DNA of 64,000 bases, taken from the NCBI GenBank assembly GCA_964424265.1, contig CAYRHX010000004.1:4081-68080 (forward strand), read 5' to 3'. The notes below the pieces were generated by a model. That model searched no databases, was not told the DNA's origin, and saw nothing but the letters and a program-made list of their open reading frames with translations. Position 1 is the stretch's first letter. Each line of letters starts with the position of its first letter. Shown one piece after another: positions 55,198 to 63,931 of the stretch. Source of the DNA: an uncultured Candidatus Saccharibacteria bacterium (GTDB lineage Bacteria > Patescibacteriota > Minisyncoccia > Phycocordibacterales > UBA2100). Position numbers and translations under genes: made by a program.

Positions 55198-56430
55198 TTA
55201 TTCTTTACCGAGGACCACCCTAAGGCTTCGATATTTGTTTGCCGGGTCCCAAAAGAGATATGAATCGAGCCCAGCGTCTTCGTTTGCCTTAATCTGCTCT
55301 TGCACCATCGCTGGCGTGTAGGTAACGGGATAATCAAAGCTTTGGAGCCAGGGGCGTATTTTAGACGCAGGATACGCGGGCTTCGAGTACACCGCGGGAG
55401 TTGAGGTCCCAATACGTTCGTAGGCGAATGATGCGATCGGCGTTGTCGTTGCAAGGGTTCGTCTTACCGCCTCGACCATGGAAAGATGTACTATGTCGTA
55501 CGAATGGGAGTTCACATCCTTATACCCATTGAATCCGCTTGGATAGTGCGAGGGATACACCATTGGATCAATGAAGTCGAAGTACGGCAGTGCGCGCTCC
55601 AGTACTTGACCAATATTCAGATCATCTTGATTTGTGGCCGTCATCCCAAAGAGATCCGCCGATGTAACGACCCCTATAGGCTCGAGTTGCTCAGACAGAT
55701 ACTTGAAAAAACTCTCGAGTACTTCCGGCTTTGTGCGGCCATCGGCCCACGAATACACCGCCTCTTTCATCGGACCGTCTGAGGGAAAGCGGATGTAGTC
55801 AAAGTTGAGTTCATCAAAACCAATCGCGTACGATTCTTTGGCCAATTCCACGACGTTGTCCCAGTATGGTTTTGCCCCCACGTCTACAAACGCGAGACCT
55901 TTGTGATCCTTCCACACGCCTCCACCACTCTTTTGCACTGCTTCGTCAGGATGGACTTTTGTGTACGCGGGATTTTGAAACGTGGTGATGCGGCCGATGA
56001 CATAAATATCTTTTTCGTGCAGCTCTTTGATAAACGCCTTCATATCACGTGCCCCACAGGCATCCGACACATAGTCTTTGAGTGAAGGATTGTCTGTAGG
56101 AAACGCTATCTTTCCTGTGTAATCTCGAATATCGATAAGGAGGGCATTGATCTCCGTAGTGTCAACAAGCTCAATCAAATCTTTGCGAAACGAAGGCGTG
56201 CCAGCCGCGCATTGCGACATATACACCGCCTTCACTGTGGGCGGCGTAGCAAGATGCTGCACCTCTGGCTCTGTAGGTGTGATCACGCCATTTGAACCTA
56301 CGACTTGAGCAACATTGCCGCCACGAATATACGAAACTTTCGGCATAGCAGAAGCCACTGCGGCTACAACACCAACAGAAAGGAGAAACAGTACTCCGAG
56401 TATCAATATCCTACTGCGCCAATTCTTCAT
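55198..56430 (-). CDS. Secreted glycoside-hydrolase-like TIM-barrel protein (DUF4015/GHL-type)
   Basis: 410 aa. Signal/TM ILILGVLFLLSVGVVAAVASA. GFDELNFDYIRFP motif typical of this hypothetical GH-like family. Confidence 0.55.
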   Translation of the reverse strand: MKNWRSRILILGVLFLLSVGVVAAVASAMPKVSYIRGGNVAQVVGSNGVITPTEPEVQHLATPPTVKAVYMSQCAAGTPSFRKDLIELVDTTEINALLIDIRDYTGKIAFPTDNPSLKDYVSDACGARDMKAFIKELHEKDIYVIGRITTFQNPAYTKVHPDEAVQKSGGGVWKDHKGLAFVDVGAKPYWDNVVELAKESYAIGFDELNFDYIRFPSDGPMKEAVYSWADGRTKPEVLESFFKYLSEQLEPIGVVTSADLFGMTATNQDDLNIGQVLERALPYFDFIDPMVYPSHYPSGFNGYKDVNSHSYDIVHLSMVEAVRRTLATTTPIASFAYERIGTSTPAVYSKPAYPASKIRPWLQSFDYPVTYTPAMVQEQIKANEDAGLDSYLFWDPANKYRSLRVVLGKE

Positions 56431-56635
56431 GTCGGTGAGCGCTTTCGGCGTATGTCTCTCCAGTTCTTGAGGCAGCTGACTGTCCGCTGCCTCGTCTGCG
56501 CACCACGATCCCCAACGCCACTACCAAAATCCCTGCAATCAAGAAAAGCACGGTATCCCAGCTCTGTGGAAATCCCAAAAACGGCAACGTAGCCACAAAC
56601 GCCCCCAACGTCATAAGAAGTGTGTCGACTGTCAT
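56411..56635 (-). CDS. Small two-TM membrane protein
   Basis: 74 aa. LLMTLGAFVATLPFLGF and VLFLIAGILVVALGIVV. Start overlaps RT stop region. Confidence 0.4.
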   Translation of the reverse strand: MTVDTLLMTLGAFVATLPFLGFPQSWDTVLFLIAGILVVALGIVVRRRGSGQSAASRTGETYAESAHRHEELAQ

Positions 56636-57666
56636 GCGGAAATTATACCATTACTTTTTCCCACCTGTCTTTTGCTCAATAATGACAACAAATTCTCCGT
56701 CAGCATCCACGCATTCCCATGCTCCAACATACCCGCATAAGATTGTATCGTCGGGCTTTCTTTCTCAAGTCTTGAGACACGTTTCTGCATCCTCCTCTTC
56801 GTACTCGTGCGAAGAACGCGATGATCGGGAAAGTGCACCCACCCGAGGAAATCAATGCCGGATGCGAAGGTCTGAATGGATACCTTATCGGGATGCAACG
56901 CAAGGCTGAGCTTCGCATCAAGAAACGTCTGGATGCGCGGCAGCAGTACTTCGAGGTCCGAACGTGAGGCAGAGAGAATCACAAAATCATCCGCATACCG
57001 AACGTAATGGTTTATTCGAAGCCGATGCTTCACGAATTGGTCAAATTCATTCATGTATACGTTCACGAGCAGCTGCGAGGTGAGGTTGCCGAGAGGCAGC
57101 CCTTTCCCTTCTTTGGTCGAATGAAAGCTACCGATGACTTCGGCGACAAGGGCGCAGATCCTCTCGTCAGGAATATAACGACCTACGATGTCGTTAATGA
57201 TGCGGTGGTCAATCGAGGCGAAGAACTTCTTGATGTCGCACTTGAGTACCCAGCACGTGCGGGTGTGGTTGCGGGAGACTTTCGCGGCAAGCTGCATGAA
57301 GCGTCCCATCGCTCGATGTGTTCCCTTTCCCTTCCTACATGAATATGAATCTGCGATCCATGTGCGGTCGAAGAATGGGTACAGTTTCCTGTACAGAGCG
57401 TGATGCAATAGTCGATCACGAACTGTCGCCTTGTGGATGTCTCGGGGCTTCGGATCGCTGATCTTGAATGCCTCGTACAGCCCGTGACGATACTTCCCAC
57501 CCGTAAGGTCACAATGGAGTGCGAAGACGTTGCCCATCAACTTGTATTGAAACTCTTGCACGTCTTGCTTCTTGCGTTTGCCTCTCACAAACTCCTTCCA
57601 TGCTGCGAGGAGATTCTCTACGCAAATGATATCCTCGTAGGTATGAGTGAGTTGGATGCGAGCCAT
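56632..57666 (-). CDS. Diversity-generating retroelement reverse transcriptase
   Basis: 344 aa. DGR-diagnostic LPLGNLTSQLLVNVYM ((I/L)GxxxSQ replacing QGxxxSP). Catalytic YVRYADDFVIL. TR located 418 bp upstream on the same strand. Confidence 0.9.
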   Translation of the reverse strand: MARIQLTHTYEDIICVENLLAAWKEFVRGKRKKQDVQEFQYKLMGNVFALHCDLTGGKYRHGLYEAFKISDPKPRDIHKATVRDRLLHHALYRKLYPFFDRTWIADSYSCRKGKGTHRAMGRFMQLAAKVSRNHTRTCWVLKCDIKKFFASIDHRIINDIVGRYIPDERICALVAEVIGSFHSTKEGKGLPLGNLTSQLLVNVYMNEFDQFVKHRLRINHYVRYADDFVILSASRSDLEVLLPRIQTFLDAKLSLALHPDKVSIQTFASGIDFLGWVHFPDHRVLRTSTKRRMQKRVSRLEKESPTIQSYAGMLEHGNAWMLTENLLSLLSKRQVGKSNGIISA

Positions 57667-57722
57667 CCCAGAAACCGTACCCCCCCCCCGCCCGATTCCG
57701 CAACAACAATTCGTGCCCGTCG

Positions 57723-58069
57723 TATCTAAACTTAAAGACGCATATCTAATCTGGCAAAGCTTTCTTCCCCATGTCGCGAAAGCTCATCGGCAAACGATTG
57801 CACACAGGATCGATACAGAGCTTTTAGAAACGCTGTCGTCGAGTTTTAGAGCTGCTTATCTAAAAGATGAGCGGAAGATTGCCGCTATAGAAGCCGCTCT
57901 TGCACGACTTGATCTTGCAAAATTCTTTTTGATTATTGGTTGGGAAATGAAAATGTTGACGGATTCACAATACGCACAGATCTCAGAGTATCTCGTGGAG
58001 GCAAGCAAAATGCTGGTGGGATGGAAAAACTATCTTGAAAAGAAAACTCCCGCGCAACGAGAACGTTGA
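57723..58069 (+). CDS. avd: Avd-like accessory variability determinant (four-helix-bundle / 23S rRNA IVS-protein family)
   Basis: About 115 aa from GTG 57723 (alternative ATG at 57656 would overlap the RT start head-to-head). C-terminal ISEYLVEASKMLVGWKNYLEKK matches the Avd hallmark (E.G+mLGGW.k). Sits between RT and TR but on the opposite strand. Confidence 0.65.
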
Positions 58070-58083
58070 TGGGAGAAAGACGT

Positions 58084-58197
58084 GAGTTTCTGACAACAAG
58101 GCGATTCTCGCGATTCCAGACGTTGTCGTTGTCGAGCGAGTTCACGTTGCGGTTCCACTGCCTGCCATTGCGATTCGCGTAGGCCACGGAGACTTTT
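58084..58197 (-). repeat. DGR template repeat (TR)
   Basis: 114-bp alignment with 58461-58574. All 21 mismatches (18 in the 58084-58193 core, plus 58194-58196) are at T on the plus strand, i.e. A on the minus/TR-sense strand. No non-A substitutions. Encodes Asn-rich ...VSVAYANRNGRQWNRNVNSLDNDNVWNRENRLVVRNS. Confidence 0.9.
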
Positions 58198-58415
58198 GTA
58201 CTCTGCGCCATCTGTACCACCGCCCATTGAGTTCTCTCCAGGCTGTATCTGATGCGGGGTCGTGAGCCCTCGAGCGTAGAGCACCAACTCATTTCTTTTT
58301 TGCGGGAATTGCACCCGAAACCTCGCCATTCCAAGCCAAAATAATAATTTGGGCCGAAAATGCCAGCGTGTTCTAAATAATTGTACCCCACCCGCGCGAT
58401 TGCGGATGGGGTACG

Positions 58416-58460
58416 GGACGCTCGAAGAAAGTGACCAAGGGTCACAGGTTCGAAGCGTCC
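58416..58460. promoter_or_regulatory. Nested GC hairpin immediately 3' of VR (DGR hairpin/cruciform-like). Second hairpin at 58383-58414.
   Basis: gtgacc-aag-ggtcac (58431-58445) nested within ggacgctcgaag...cttcgaagcgtcc arms. Adjacent gtacccca...tggggtac hairpin (58383-58414). Target gene stop codon lies inside the hairpin. Confidence 0.6.
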
Positions 58461-59083
58461 GAGTTGCTGACAACAAGGCGATGCCCGCGATCCCAGACGC
58501 GGCCGTGGCCGAGCGAGTACACGTCGCGGAGCCACTGCCTGCCACCGCGACCCGCGTAGGCCACGGAGACCGATCCGTCTGCGTTTTCGACGGGAAAGAA
58601 GTTGGCGAATCCGTCGGTTCGGAAGCCGAAGTCCTCACCGCCCTCCTGCTTCTTGACGAACTTCTCCTGCTTCTCGATCATCAGATCGATTTTCTGGGAG
58701 GCCAGTGTATGGCCTCCCTGCTTGAGGCGATTGGCGATCTCCTCGATCGTCGCGGTTTCGGGCAGCTTGAGGAGCGCGCGGAACATTTGCGCGAACATCA
58801 TGTTTTGACGGAGTCCGAATGTGGTCACCGACGTCGACCCGAGCGTCGTCTGCTTGACCGCGACGAACAGCGAGGGCTTTGGTTCGGAAGCCGCTGCCGG
58901 ATCCTTCGGGGCAAGAAGCTGGTCGAAGGCAACGGCAAGCAGCTCTTGAAGCTCGGCCCCCCTGGTATTGCAAGTCTTGATAACCTGGGCCGGATCACGA
59001 CCCTCGACCACTTGGGCGAGCGCTTTCGCGACTGGCCCGATGACTTCCGCGAATTGCGGGTTAGTGAAGGCTGTTCCACCCAT
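58442..59083 (-). CDS. DGR target protein (variable C-terminal about 38 aa)
   Basis: 213 aa. VR occupies the last about 38 codons. GAGGG RBS-like motif 8 nt upstream of ATG. No obvious signal peptide. Confidence 0.8.
   Translation of the reverse strand: MGGTAFTNPQFAEVIGPVAKALAQVVEGRDPAQVIKTCNTRGAELQELLAVAFDQLLAPKDPAAASEPKPSLFVAVKQTTLGSTSVTTFGLRQNMMFAQMFRALLKLPETATIEEIANRLKQGGHTLASQKIDLMIEKQEKFVKKQEGGEDFGFRTDGFANFFPVENADGSVSVAYAGRGGRQWLRDVYSLGHGRVWDRGHRLVVSNSDASNL
58461..58574 (-). repeat. DGR variable repeat (VR) within 3' end of target gene
   Basis: Counterpart of the TR. Encodes ...VSVAYAGRGGRQWLRDVYSLGHGRVWDRGHRLVVSNS. AAC/AAT codons of the TR appear as GGT/CTC/GAC/TAC/CAC/CGC/GAT/CAT. 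Confidence 0.9.
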
Positions 59084-59254
59084 GGTGGCTGTTCCCTCTG
59101 ATGCTGCCGCATGATTGCGTTTAAGGCATTGTCGATTGACTTTGCCACAGCGGAAAAAGGCCTATTTTAAGCCGCTTTCCGCCATGGCAAAATCCACCTT
59201 TTCTCAAAGAACGAGGGTAAATTTATACCACGAGATTTAGGTATCTCCAAATTT

Positions 59255-59974
59255 TCATTTTGTTTTTGAGCGAGAGCGGATTTCAATGATGACAACAAAC
59301 TCACCCCGGACACCTTTCTTTTTCTCCAACCGATCTGCTAGTTCGAGCGGCGTACCGACGAGCACTTCTTCGTGCATTTTAGTGATCTCACGCGCAATGG
59401 TCACACGAGCGTTCGGAATGAATTTTTCGATTTCAGAAAGTAGCTTGATGACTCGGTGCGGTGACTCGTAGAGCACGACTGTATATTCTGAAGTTGCGAT
59501 CTTTTTGAGTGCGGTCTGCCTTCCCTTCTTATGCGGAAGAAATCCCAGAAACGTAAAAGCGTCTCCTGTCATTCCCGCAATCGAGAGCGCGGCGGTAAGT
59601 GCGGACGGTCCTGGGATCGCATCGATCTTTGCTTCTGGAAGATTCTCGCGGATATACGCGACCAATCGCGCACCCGGATCAGAGACCCCAGGCGTTCCAG
59701 CATCGGAAACGTACACTACGTGTTCTCCCTTCTCAAGCCGATCAGCAATTTCTTTTGCCTTCGTGACTTCGGTCGATGCGTCGAGTCGAAATACCGACGT
59801 GCGAAGTCCGTAATGCGCGAGAAGCTTCGCAATCACGCGCGTGTCTTCAGCATAAATCGCATGTGCCTCTTTCAGATTCCATAATCCTCGAAAGGTAATA
59901 TCTCCCATGTTGCCAATGGGCGTCGCAACTATCGAAAGAGTGCCGGTGGTCGAAGAATCGTGCTCGTTCATCAA
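59255..59974 (-). CDS. rsmI: 16S rRNA (cytidine1402-2'-O)-methyltransferase
   Basis: 239 aa. LSIVATPIGNMGDITFRGLWNLKEAHAIYAEDTR is the RsmI/tetrapyrrole-methylase-fold signature. Confidence 0.85.
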   Translation of the reverse strand: MMNEHDSSTTGTLSIVATPIGNMGDITFRGLWNLKEAHAIYAEDTRVIAKLLAHYGLRTSVFRLDASTEVTKAKEIADRLEKGEHVVYVSDAGTPGVSDPGARLVAYIRENLPEAKIDAIPGPSALTAALSIAGMTGDAFTFLGFLPHKKGRQTALKKIATSEYTVVLYESPHRVIKLLSEIEKFIPNARVTIAREITKMHEEVLVGTPLELADRLEKKKGVRGEFVVIIEIRSRSKTK

Positions 59975-59980
59975 TCCACA

Positions 59981-61264
59981 CTACTCCCCTACAATCTGTT
60001 CTGCAACCTTGTAGATGTCACCCGCACCCATCGTAATAACGAGAGCATCTGTTTCCTCGAGTAAGCGACCTCGAATCTCATCGAATGAATCGATAGCCTC
60101 TACATCTCCCCCTAGCTTCTGCGCCGCCTCTGCGAGAATGCGATGCGAGACAGTGGGATCGAGCGTCTCGCGTGCCGCATAAATAGGAGCAACAAACGCC
60201 ACGTCCGCTGTCGCAAGTGCACCGGCAAACTCGTGGAGCAGCGATTTGGTACGGCTATAGAGGTGCGGATGGAAGGCGACGACGATCTTTTTACCGGTGA
60301 ACCTTTCGCGTGCCGCTTCAATGGTCTTCGCAATCGCGGTGGGATGGTGCGCGTAGTCATCGTACACGAGAGCACCATTCGGCGTCTCCCCCTTATATTC
60401 AAATCGTCGCCACGAACCCTTAAAACCCTCAAGGGCGAGATCCGCGACATCGCCGGGAATATCTGGAAACGCCACTAATGCGGCAGTCTTCGCAGCCCGC
60501 GCGTTCATGCGATTAAACTCACCAATCTGAGAAAGCGCCGGCACGTCGATTCGAGTATGGTCGATGACTTTCGCACGAATATTTTTGAGAACGGGAGCAA
60601 TGTTCTCATCGTTTGGATCGGCGATAATACATCCGTGCGCGGGTATTTTCTCCGCGGCTGCTCTAAACGTCTCTTGCAATGCTGCGAGATCGGGGAAGTA
60701 ATCGGTATGGTCAAGCTCGATGTTGGTAATGACAAGAATTTCCGGTGAGAGCTTGAGGATGTGATCACGATACTCGCACGCCTCAACAACAAAAAGGTCG
60801 GACTGGCCCGGGAGAAAATTTGATCCAAAATCGCGCACGATGGAACCGACGATCGCGGTGGGTTCTTTCTTTGCCTGCGCCAAAATGAGGGCGAGCATGC
60901 CGGTCGTCGTTGTCTTCCCGTGCGTCCCGGCGACTGCAATCGTCCGCGCACCATCTGAAACCGCACCAAGCGCTTCAAAATAGGACATCTCAGGAATTCC
61001 CATCTCGCGCGCTCGCGTGCGCTCGACATTGCTCTCTGGTATCGCGTCGCTATATACAAGAAGCTCAGCGTCGGCGGGAATATTGCATTGATCGTGCCCT
61101 ATCACCACGTCAATCCCAACTTCCGCGAGCATGACAGTAACGGGCGATTCGTCTCGATCCGACCCACTGACCTTGCGCCCAGTGTGTTTCAAAAATTGCG
61201 CGAGCGCCGACATTCCAATGCCCCCGATGCCGACCATGTATATCGAATCAGGTACCTGCATCAT
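59981..61264 (-). CDS. murC: UDP-N-acetylmuramate--L-alanine ligase
   Basis: 427 aa. IYMVGIGGIGMSALAQFLKHTGRKVSGSD...AVAGTHGKTTTTGMLA. Confidence 0.9.
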   Translation of the reverse strand: MMQVPDSIYMVGIGGIGMSALAQFLKHTGRKVSGSDRDESPVTVMLAEVGIDVVIGHDQCNIPADAELLVYSDAIPESNVERTRAREMGIPEMSYFEALGAVSDGARTIAVAGTHGKTTTTGMLALILAQAKKEPTAIVGSIVRDFGSNFLPGQSDLFVVEACEYRDHILKLSPEILVITNIELDHTDYFPDLAALQETFRAAAEKIPAHGCIIADPNDENIAPVLKNIRAKVIDHTRIDVPALSQIGEFNRMNARAAKTAALVAFPDIPGDVADLALEGFKGSWRRFEYKGETPNGALVYDDYAHHPTAIAKTIEAARERFTGKKIVVAFHPHLYSRTKSLLHEFAGALATADVAFVAPIYAARETLDPTVSHRILAEAAQKLGGDVEAIDSFDEIRGRLLEETDALVITMGAGDIYKVAEQIVGE

Positions 61265-61306: not shown

Positions 61307-61570
61307 ATGAGCAAAGGCGAGAAGAAACCAAAATTCAATTTCGAAGAATTGAAAGCAGCCGCCACGAGCGCGGACGCAAAAATCCGGAAAAGAGTTTTTG
61401 AAGAATACTTTGAACAATTCGAAGAATTCCCGTCCTACCTCTTCGACAACACCAACGGCATCGATAGTCGACTCCAGGAGACAATAGAGGATCTGAAAAA
61501 AGATCCGGATACGTCGAAAAGCCTGCAGAAAGGAATCCTCGCCCTCATGCAGCGTCTTCCATCGTCCTAA
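61307..61570 (+). CDS. Small hypothetical protein (87 aa, acidic/helical)
   Basis: ATG at 61307. MSKGEKKPKFNFEELKAAATSADAKIRKRVFEEYFEQFEEF... Convergent with murD. Confidence 0.4.
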   Translation: MSKGEKKPKFNFEELKAAATSADAKIRKRVFEEYFEQFEEFPSYLFDNTNGIDSRLQETIEDLKKDPDTSKSLQKGILALMQRLPSS

Positions 61571-62900
61571 CTATCCCCAAAAACTGGTCGTTGCGCTCGT
61601 ATTCGTTTTTGAACATTCCAAACGACGCAAAAGCCGGACTGAAGAGAATGACCTCGCTTCTTTTGGTAACGGCAACATCCATTGCCTGCTGCAAGCTCCC
61701 CACTTCCTCATACGCAATCCCCGCCTCTTGCAAAACACCGACCAGTCGTGCGGAACCTTTGTAATTCGAGTGCATGAGTACAATAACGTGCGAAACATTT
61801 TTTTTGATTTCTGAAACAAGCTCCCCGAGCGGCAAATCCTTCTCCGAACCGCCTACAATAAGCGTACAGCTTCCTCCCACCGCACGCAGTGCCGCAATGG
61901 TGGCCTCGGGCGTCGTTGCGTTGTTGTCGTTGTAAATCTTTCCCCCCCCAACCTCGCGGACGAGTTGCAGGCGGCCTTCAACGCCTTCAAACGATTCGAC
62001 TCCTGCGCGTATTTCGTCCTCTGACAAACCAAGTGCAGAAAGCGCGGCGGCTGCAAGCGATGCATTCTCGCGGTTATGTGTACCGATGATTTTCAAACTC
62101 CAATCTGCGGGTATCGGATCGGGGACGAGCGGCGCGACCTCCGGTCGCGCCGCCTCCACGCGCTCCCGGACAGACGACCCAACAAACAAAGAATCTCCGC
62201 TTTTCTGAAACCGAAAAATATTCGCCTTGTCTGCAAAATACGCGTCCATGCTCGGATAATAATTTTGATGGTCCGGCATGAGATTGGTAAACACGGCAAT
62301 ATCGGGACTAATTTTCAAATCACCAAACCCCTGCAACTGCCACGAATCAAGCTCAAGCACGCAGATGTCACCAGCTCGAACATCGGGAAGCATAGCGAGT
62401 GTGGACTTACCGCGAATGTTGCCACCGAGAAAGATTTTTCTTTCTCGCCCCGAGCCCGGTCGAGGGGCTGCGCTTTTCAGCGCATAAAAAATCGCGTGCG
62501 TAACTGTTGATTTCCCTCGGGTACCGGTAACGCCGACAATCTGCGCTCCTGCCTCTCTGGCATATTTTGCAAAAAGCGCTGTCGACATATACACGGGCAC
62601 CTCCGCATCGCGCGCGGCAGCAATTTCTGGAGAGTCGAGCGGTATTCCCGCCGCTTTCACCACCATTTCGGTGTCGATAAAATCTTCCTTCCGATGACCG
62701 CCAAGATGGAATGTGACGTTCGGATACTTTTTTAACTTCTCAACCGATTCCATCAGTTCGGCCTCGCTTTTTTTATCAGTGACCGTCAGCTCAGCACCGC
62801 ACTGCGCCAAAAACTCAGCGTCCCCCACCCCACGCCCTAGCAGCCCAAGCCCAAGTAAAGTGATGCGCTTGCCTTTAAAAGACTCAGTATACTCTTCCAT
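61545..62900 (-). CDS. murD: UDP-N-acetylmuramoylalanine--D-glutamate ligase
   Basis: 451 aa. KRITLLGLGLLGRGVGDAEFLAQCGAELTVTD...VGVTGTRGKSTVTHAI. Confidence 0.9.
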   Translation of the reverse strand: MEEYTESFKGKRITLLGLGLLGRGVGDAEFLAQCGAELTVTDKKSEAELMESVEKLKKYPNVTFHLGGHRKEDFIDTEMVVKAAGIPLDSPEIAAARDAEVPVYMSTALFAKYAREAGAQIVGVTGTRGKSTVTHAIFYALKSAAPRPGSGRERKIFLGGNIRGKSTLAMLPDVRAGDICVLELDSWQLQGFGDLKISPDIAVFTNLMPDHQNYYPSMDAYFADKANIFRFQKSGDSLFVGSSVRERVEAARPEVAPLVPDPIPADWSLKIIGTHNRENASLAAAALSALGLSEDEIRAGVESFEGVEGRLQLVREVGGGKIYNDNNATTPEATIAALRAVGGSCTLIVGGSEKDLPLGELVSEIKKNVSHVIVLMHSNYKGSARLVGVLQEAGIAYEEVGSLQQAMDVAVTKRSEVILFSPAFASFGMFKNEYERNDQFLGIVRTMEDAA

Positions 62901-63160: not shown

Positions 63161-63931
63161 TCAGATTGCGAGGAGCGGGGAGACATTGGCGCGATAGCGA
63201 CCAAGGACGAGCCAGCCGCAGCCCCAGCACCACGAGCCGCCGCCGCGGCGGCGGTAGAGGCACAGGAAGTACCGGCGGCCGCCCGAGCTGCGCAGCGCGG
63301 TTGCGAATTCCATCCACGAAATTCCGTGCGTATCGTAGAGGAACCGCAATGTTACTTGACCCTTCTCGTCGAGGAGGGCTTGTCCCACCCCCGCGTCGAG
63401 GCGGATTCGCGGGTCGGCCTTCATCCGATCGAGCTTCTCCTCCCCTGTGATGCGAGTCTCTCCCTCCTTGAGAAAGTGCCCGAACCCGACTTTCGAGAAG
63501 TCGATTTCGGTCAAGCCGAGCGAGCGAGGATCTTGATCCTCGTCGCCCTCCAGACCGCCCCCATCGATCGGACCCCGCCAGATGCGCGATCCTTGACCAA
63601 GAAATCTGACGGGGTCGAAAGGTTTCGAGCGATCAATAACAAGGACGCTCGTGCCTTTTATCGTGAGGCGGCAGCCATTGTTGAGGAAGACAGTAAAGCG
63701 CCGCCCCAATTCTTCCCGCGATAACGCGATGACGTTTTGTTGGAGAGGATCGTGCTCAATCGACCCCCACTTGGTGTCGGTCGAGAAGCGCGCGATGAGT
63801 TCGCGGCTCTGGTCGCCTGATGCAACTTTCATCATTACCTCCATTTGCGCTGGACCATCCTCGCACGGGACTGTGCAAGGTAGGCTGGACGCACGCTGCG
63901 GCAACTTTTCACCGCAGGACAGAAAGGCCAC
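63161..63931 (-). CDS. Hypothetical protein with VR-like Gly/Arg/Trp-rich C-terminus (candidate second DGR target)
   Basis: 256 aa. C-terminus GGRRYFLCLYRRRGGGSWCWGCGWLVLGRYRANVSP resembles diversified C-type-lectin-fold VR tails (RGGSW....R.A.R...P). No cognate TR found in the window. Confidence 0.45.
   Translation of the reverse strand: MAFLSCGEKLPQRASSLPCTVPCEDGPAQMEVMMKVASGDQSRELIARFSTDTKWGSIEHDPLQQNVIALSREELGRRFTVFLNNGCRLTIKGTSVLVIDRSKPFDPVRFLGQGSRIWRGPIDGGGLEGDEDQDPRSLGLTEIDFSKVGFGHFLKEGETRITGEEKLDRMKADPRIRLDAGVGQALLDEKGQVTLRFLYDTHGISWMEFATALRSSGGRRYFLCLYRRRGGGSWCWGCGWLVLGRYRANVSPLLAI

Follow-up and report, generated by a model that had tools for sequence, protein, structure and literature searches.

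In the diversity-generating retroelement (DGR) of Bordetella phage BPP-1, the functional RNA consists of 20 nt upstream of the template repeat (TR), the TR itself and a 140-nt downstream region termed Sp, with both the primer (Sp A56) and the large structured RNA lying 3' of the TR; cDNA starts at TR G117, beside a 4-bp duplex of TR118-121 with Sp53-56, and copying stops before a duplex with upstream sequence, the cPRT Stop (Handa et al., bioRxiv 10.1101/2023.10.23.563531). Furthermore, a GC-rich inverted repeat is located downstream of the initiation of mutagenic homing (IMH) sequence of the Bordetella phage DGR (Wu 2018, PMC5758913). Among DGRs of the candidate phyla radiation (CPR, Patescibacteria), the arrangement TR-(avd)-reverse transcriptase (RT), designated architecture B3, accounts for 90% of the set (Wu et al. 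2018, PMC5758913). DGR clade 2 is cellular and restricted to Patescibacteria, and CPR targets are typically devoid of recognisable domains, transmembrane ones included (Roux et al. 2021, PMC8144416). Here we analysed 64,000 nt of DNA (the window, to which all positions refer) from an uncultured Candidatus Saccharibacteria bacterium (GenBank assembly GCA_964424265.1, contig CAYRHX010000004.1, positions 4,081 to 68,080 of the forward strand), which very probably harbours an intact chromosomal DGR of the patescibacterial kind, in the order target gene with variable repeat (VR), spacer RNA, TR, (avd) and RT. Its principal parts are the following.

58442-59083, minus strand: target (variable protein) gene of 213 aa, an open reading frame (ORF) with an N-terminal helical part and a C-terminal domain of ~140 aa that includes the VR.
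58461-58574, minus strand: VR, the last ~38 codons of the target, from its ungapped match to the TR.
58084-58197, minus strand: TR, from its ungapped self-match with the VR.
57713-58069, plus strand: avd-like accessory gene of 118 aa, counted from GTG 57713, from sub-threshold family matches.
56632-57666, minus strand: DGR reverse transcriptase of 344 aa, from RVT_1, a PDB match and motifs.

The preliminary description of this DNA had reported a complete DGR, and indeed RT, TR/VR pair, VR-bearing target ORF and Avd-like gene are all present and intact, in the minus-strand order that it gave (target with VR, hairpins, TR, antisense avd, RT). TR and VR align without gaps over 114 nt as stated there, although we count 20 and not 21 differences. 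Pairwise alignment and tabulation of substitutions agree with its claim that changes occur only at coding-strand adenines and lead to G, C or T: on the minus strand, all 20 differences lie at TR adenines (A>G 11, A>C 6, A>T 3), so that 20 of the 32 TR adenines are altered in the VR, and the probability that 20/20 differences would hit adenine by chance is 2.3e-14 (hypergeometric). The ORF list likewise places the VR at the end of the 213-aa ORF. Read in the target frame, the TR encodes ...ANRNGRQWNRNVNSLDNDNVWNRENRLVVRNS, or in a longer reading K VSVAYANRNGRQWNRNVNSLDNDNVWNRENRLVVRN; its adenines are distributed over codon positions 1/2/3 as 13/16/2, and the asparagine codons AAC (six) and AAT (four) dominate, as had been noted before. 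Up to 18 codons could be recoded from this template, corresponding to about 1e17 possible proteins. A search of both strands of the window that tolerated any change at A found no second VR for this TR.

The translation of 56632-57666 contains GLPLGNLTSQ and RYADDF, and thus the LGNLTSQ and YADD motifs previously assigned to it. It matches Pfam RVT_1 with E = 3e-25. Among solved structures, 8ub7_A is its closest relative: residues 11-331 are covered at E = 1.3e-46, and LGNLTSQ falls opposite IGSLTSQ. The residue numbering used in the Handa preprint led us to equate this entry with the RT of the Bordetella phage DGR; group II intron RTs trail in the PDB comparison at E = 2e-21. The reading frame of the Avd-like gene stays open upstream of its GTG to ATG 57656 and GTG 57647, and its product matches Pfam bAvd with E = 2e-6 (28.7 bits, cut-off 40) and NCBIfam DivGenRetAVD with E = 1.9e-10 (41 bits, cut-off 80). 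An apparent 318-aa RT and a 137-aa Avd "variant" (L094, L095) were dismissed as gene-calling differences, as the underlying DNA is identical.

Scanning genomes with this RT recovered over 590 relatives among Patescibacteria; the comparisons of related DGR loci below draw on the best 80 or so, which share 58-71% identity with it and stem mostly from metagenome-assembled genomes labelled as Patescibacteria-group members (Kaiserbacteria, Paceibacterota, Adlerbacteria and others). All 75 loci with enough sequence have an Avd homologue immediately upstream of, and antisense to, the RT, and 66/73 contain an adenine-biased TR/VR pair arranged as here, the VR preceding the TR by 380-500 nt. By sequence and layout the locus is thus a member of the CPR lineage with architecture B3 and DGR clade 2. 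Since the B3 layout and domain-less targets prevail in CPR, the features that the preliminary description considered atypical are the norm of the lineage: the target is indeed short and without signal peptide or obvious domain, but CPR targets usually are. The neighbours of the DGR are murC, murD, rsmI, DUF4015 and YkuD genes. As a DGR, the locus adds one example to a lineage catalogued since 2017; the architecture of its template RNA, with the elements listed next, offers more.

58198-58284, minus strand: structured RNA (P1-P3) directly 5' of the TR, by covariation and a covariance model.
58285-58299, minus strand: leader, the 5' strand of a long-range helix P0, by covariation in 51 loci.
58075-58089, minus strand: 3' strand of P0, comprising the last 6 nt of the TR and 9 nt beyond, by covariation.
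58037-58075, minus strand: terminator-like end of the TR RNA, by RNAfold and a terminator-like scan.

The ~115 nt preceding the TR were aligned across 56 loci (A5), and RNAalifold yielded three helices with 24 bp, 19 of which show compensatory changes. P1 (12 bp, 58284-58273 with 58209-58198) closes a three-way junction with the hairpins P2 and P3 and ends 1 nt before the first TR base. Cells of P1-P3 in this alignment are paired in 96.6% of cases, compared with 75% after shuffling and 34-49% with slid partners, and compensatory cells number 339 versus 102 +/- 13. The covariance model has a single match in the window (58187-58302, 99 bits) and also matches 17 held-out loci, always just 5' of the TR, but is absent from decayed loci. 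No Rfam family matched 56000-60000 at E <= 1. Furthermore, this locus and the related L011 share 90-98% identity in the spacer that separates VR from TR, compared with only 70-80% in the flanking target gene and TR; judged from these values, the spacer is under strong constraint.

The second element, P0, joins the leader to the 3' end of the TR, and the final leader bases UUG (58287-58285) pair opposite the CAA/AAA at the TR end, which makes the leader a candidate primer strand. In the corresponding alignment (A6, 51 loci), P0 cells are paired in 75.7% of cases, versus 66% for shuffled and 37-48% for slid partners, with 69 compensatory cells versus 26 +/- 3.7. P0 is clear only when the register is fixed and covariation is counted: when leader and tail were left free to pair in RNAduplex, the result was no better than for shuffled leaders (mean z = -0.44). 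Its register coincides with the boundary of mutagenesis. Homology between TR and VR ends right after a conserved CAA in 64 loci (AAA in this TR, 58089-58087), the adenines of which are changed in merely 5/56 and 8/63 loci as compared to 50-94% for upstream adenines, and the G preceding CAA is invariant across related loci.

Directly after P0, a terminator hairpin with CTCCC (58075-58071) and GGGAG (58051-58047) is followed by TTTTCTTTTC (58046-58037), overlapping the 3' end and stop codon of avd on the other strand. A GC-rich hairpin with a T-run occupies this position in 61/65 related loci while its stem sequences vary; because this terminator follows the TR, the TR RNA looks discrete, without read-through into the antisense avd. 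We also considered a pairing of the junction sequence GGCGGTGG with CCAnCCGCC inside the antisense avd, but dropped it, as both are invariant and the latter is situated beyond the terminator. An ORF of 170-200 aa at 57933-58535 (minus), running through spacer RNA, TR and antisense avd, was judged spurious because the conserved RNA accounts for the same stretch. Public assemblies annotate it as a 170-aa gene (L001 10639-11151), most likely a false call over non-coding template RNA.

We found no description of the structured 5' RNA, of the helix between leader and TR 3' end or of the avd-RT repeat tract described below in Rfam or in the DGR literature covered, with Paul et al. 2017 outside that coverage. 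A DGR survey in which CPR members are mentioned (Handa et al., bioRxiv 10.1101/2023.10.23.563531) was restricted to 40 nt on the 5' side of the TR and 100 nt on its 3' side, a range that would not have revealed junction or leader.

At the 3' end of the VR and after it, three further features lie on the same strand.

58467-58481, minus strand: IMH-like adenine-free segment at the VR 3' end, with its TR counterpart at 58090-58104.
58416-58460, minus strand: first post-VR hairpin, by RNAfold and a terminator-like scan.
58383-58414, minus strand: second post-VR hairpin with a 13-bp GC-rich stem GTACCCCATCCGC...GCGGGTGGGGTAC, by RNAfold and a terminator scan.

The adenine-free segment is 15 nt long, is identical in TR and VR, and is followed by the last shared bases, CAA/AAA; across 64 loci, TR positions -15 to -1 before the end of homology contain almost no A. 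The outer stem of the first hairpin begins in the last codons of the target, whereas its inner 6-bp stem GTGACC/GGTCAC lies at 58431-58445. The second hairpin is probably the terminator of the target gene.

We propose that a minus-strand non-coding RNA of about 260-290 nt would extend from upstream of 58299 to the terminator near 58040. In this RNA the leader would pair with the TR 3' end (P0) while the ~87-nt three-way junction P1-P3 separates leader and TR, so that the TR would be looped out between P1 and P0. The RT, together with Avd, would then copy the TR, beginning with the invariant G that immediately precedes the CAA/AAA opposite the leader UUG, random nucleotides would be placed opposite adenines, and cDNA synthesis would halt at the base of P1, where homology between TR and VR begins. 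Finally, with the adenine-free IMH-like segment and the post-VR hairpins as guides, the cDNA would replace the VR, and up to 18 codons would be recoded on the C-terminal, probably C-type-lectin-like, domain of the 213-aa target. Priming at the G and arrest at P1 are the steps of this scheme that we deduce from the position of the helices relative to the boundaries of TR-VR homology. For the bacterial branch richest in DGRs, this is a concrete and testable model of how copying would be primed and terminated.

Several observations weigh against this reading or against parts of it. Both Avd scores stay under the curated family cut-offs, and a PDB sequence search gave no match for the Avd-like protein. 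A promoter of the TR RNA was not located. The first base of CAA is A in the TR and always C in the VR in 12 loci including this one; as this A/C is a fixed difference and not the outcome of random mutagenesis, the exact cDNA start is uncertain. Moreover, the 3-kb DGR region is 100% identical in eight assemblies from several samples with the exception of one single-nucleotide polymorphism in the RT, no VR variants occur among these eight, and the 90% cluster of the target has a single member. Given this uniformity, ongoing diversification is putative, and so is any binding partner of the target.

The uniformity might also mean that the DGR merely looks complete and is fossil or switched off, its VR having been diversified earlier and then fixed. 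Besides the identical VR and cassette in eight assemblies and the protein cluster devoid of variants, this would agree with the decayed DGRs that close relatives within the target family carry (L007-L010), with an orphan VR-bearing gene without TR in the same window, and with the repeat tract before the RT, which could hold the system OFF. However, none of the ORFs is disrupted, the RT has both its catalytic YADD and the SQ motif, the TR retains 32 adenines in AAY-rich codons, and RNA helices, terminator and IMH-like segment all fit the clade consensus, with a strongly constrained spacer; minor VR variants could in addition be hidden, since assemblies report a consensus. Taken together, we consider an inactive element improbable. 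Far less probable still, and effectively refuted, is the idea that the RT belongs to a different retroelement (group II intron, retron or defence RT) and that the two 114-nt segments are an ordinary diverged duplication. NCBIfam does return sub-threshold similarity to group II intron, Drt and retron RTs, but such similarity is expected for any RT, and a DGR RT is the best solved relative by 25 orders of magnitude in E-value. The motif reads SQ and not SP, neither intron RNA domains nor an Rfam match were found, the differences are confined to adenine (P = 2e-14), and the same anatomy recurs in 66 related loci.

An intact patescibacterial DGR thus remains the favoured reading, and its target deserves a closer look. 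The target has no match in Pfam, in NCBIfam or by PDB sequence search, and forms, together with three others, only four clusters at 90% identity among 5.8e9 proteins. A profile built from these clusters finds 185 representatives of 145-260 aa, which have the C-terminal ~130 residues in common. The preliminary description had suggested structure prediction as a test for a C-type-lectin fold; with the family alignment, the AlphaFold2 model reached a pLDDT of 89.6 overall and 96-98 in the C-terminal domain, and this confident model returned weak matches to C-type-lectin-like folds. We read the C-terminal domain, as far as the model can tell, as a putative, strongly diverged C-type-lectin-like scaffold. 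Within the VR, W184, W197, R202, L191 and V196 are invariant across the family and encoded by adenine-free TR codons. Compared with the wider family, this target is devoid of the segment K.T..C...YRD.D.D.WLP common to most members. The family represents a compact, confidently modelled scaffold for massive variation, and as its member here has no signal peptide, it bears on the question of whether CPR targets act inside the cell.

A further feature sits between the divergent starts of avd and RT.

57680-57689, both strands: homopolymer separating the avd and RT starts, read as C10 on the plus strand and as G10 on that of the RT.

The G10 lies 13 nt before the RT ATG, with a -10-like hexamer TACGGT after the tract, and the open avd frame mentioned above runs across it. 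A simple-sequence repeat occupies the avd-RT junction in 73-76 of ~80 related loci (including L013-L092): a G run of 7-14 in 67 of them, and other repeats, namely (TTGA)7, (TTGG)10, (GTTC)9, (CTGG)6-10 or (GT)8-16, in eight or nine. The related loci, 719 kb in total, contain 68 G/C runs of at least 8, of which 65 fall at this junction. The sole other such run in the window is a C8 (plus, 61942-61949) inside a murD-like gene (61545-62900, minus). The hexamer after the tract fits TAnnnT in 26/67 loci, often with the ATG exactly 13 nt away, and its distance to a -35-like xGGyAA motif peaks at 16-18 nt; this spacing is compatible with the tract acting as a promoter spacer ahead of a leaderless RT mRNA. 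In all 73 loci inspected, the Avd frame is open through the tract, encoding PPP and then a conserved LLPVLEK, and an in-frame upstream Avd start exists in 24 (ATG) or 32 (any start) of the 73, compared with 29 and 34 by chance. A translational model, in which the tract would lie within the avd ORF and code for part of an N-terminal extension of Avd, with most genomes in frame, is neither favoured nor disfavoured by these counts.

Contingency loci with simple-sequence repeats, placed in promoter spacers or within genes, control surface genes of Neisseria and Haemophilus. The avd-RT tract is reminiscent of them in that a hypermutable repeat is found at a fixed place with respect to two divergent genes, either directly in front of them or in their 5' portion, and in that the repeat type shifts (poly-G, GT, TTGG, CTGG, GTTC, TTGA) while the position is kept. 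A repeat kept in position regardless of its sequence points to a contingency switch, and we thus regard the tract as a candidate phase-variation switch for the DGR machinery. Unlike in contingency loci, tract length is constant within the sampled population: no variation of the G10 was seen across eight assemblies. No literature linking DGRs with such repeat tracts was found. If the candidate switch is real, a phase-variable mutator would explain why VRs look static in many assemblies.

The surroundings of the cassette bear on how it was acquired, above all a pair of repeats at its two ends.

59283-59305, minus strand: left copy of a 23-nt imperfect direct repeat, at the rsmI 3' end, encoding GEFVVIIE.
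56676-56698, minus strand: right copy of the 23-nt direct repeat, inside the RT 3' end.

The two copies are identical at 20/23 positions, bracket the ~2.6-kb cassette, and both encode the RsmI C-terminal GEFVVIIE; each is then followed by TGGTATAA(T/A). In a frame other than that of the RT, the right copy reads GEFVVIIEQKTGGKK*, its GEFVVIIE continuing as QKTGGKK*, and looks like the displaced original end of rsmI, such that the last ~15-20 codons of the RT extend into duplicated host sequence. This pattern suggests that the cassette was inserted into the rsmI 3' end, with the repeats as the insertion scar. No empty insertion site or DGR-less strain was recovered, the search via the neighbouring 74-aa protein giving only the same strain.

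Loss is illustrated by L007-L010, in which a deletion begins right behind the VR hairpins and reaches mid-RT, so that spacer RNA, TR, avd and the RT N-terminus are gone, while the target and the hairpins are kept (L007 3526-4959) along with a 160-aa RT remnant with LGNLTSQ and YADD, in a different genomic context (Pterin_4a / PilM). The contig of L011 stops 43 nt into the TR, with two non-adenine differences in that part, and that of L012 ends before any TR. In several samples, contigs also break between VR and TR (L005/L006 end at window position ~58291, L094 starts at ~58153). As exact matches between TR and VR do not exceed ~18 nt, repeat collapse is an unlikely cause, and the breaks might reflect low coverage or local heterogeneity.

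The window contains a second gene of the DGR-target type, of 227 aa (63161-63844, minus). Its 45 homologues share the invariant scaffold G..R.FL.L..R...GSW.....WL...R.....VSP, into which hypervariable positions are interspersed in the last ~45 residues, and its family provides the VR-bearing target beside the TR in L017, L065, L063, L064, L061 and L049. A TR matching its VR-like stretch was not found in the window, and the stretch is adenine-depleted relative to the TR of L017; the gene could carry an orphan VR, or it could serve as target for a DGR situated in another part of the genome. Flanking repeats, decayed relatives and the orphan VR gene together document gain and loss of DGR cassettes in tiny genomes.

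Compared with the CPR DGRs of architecture B3 and clade 2, the locus has the same gene order and strands as all 75 relatives, likewise a chromosomal and not a phage context, and a short, domain-less target without signal peptide; what sets it apart is a target from a small sub-family (four clusters at 90% identity, against 185 representatives of the wider family). The DGR of Bordetella phage BPP-1 (mtd-VR, avd, TR, Sp, brt) is more distant, yet its RT is homologous, with IGxxxSQ and YADD. Its partner is Avd, to which a putative Avd-like protein would correspond here, and both systems have in common the adenine-specific transfer from TR to VR and an IMH-like end free of A; the post-VR hairpins here sit in the position of the inverted repeat beyond the IMH in characterised DGRs, the Bordetella phage DGR among them. 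In both, furthermore, the TR is looped out between two duplexes with flanking RNA, as predicted here from covariation; the invariant G before the short duplex at the TR 3' end resembles G117 with Sp53-56:TR118-121, and P1 at the presumed 5' boundary of copying resembles the cPRT Stop duplex.

Unlike in BPP-1, however, avd runs antisense to TR and RT, the variable protein does not belong to a phage tail, and the transcript appears to end about 45 nt after the TR, with the antisense avd beyond. The covariation-supported template RNA hence differs in topology from the only DGR RNA understood structurally. Since the structured part and the candidate primer strand sit 5' of the TR, the arrangement looks permuted, which suggests that in Patescibacteria the logic of the Bordetella phage element has been rearranged. 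Although we hold it to be somewhat short of an even bet, Patescibacteria DGRs, the present one among them, may use such a permuted template RNA, with the RT/Avd-binding part and the priming strand 5' of the TR, plus a mutable repeat switch of their own that would turn the diversifier on and off or tune it.

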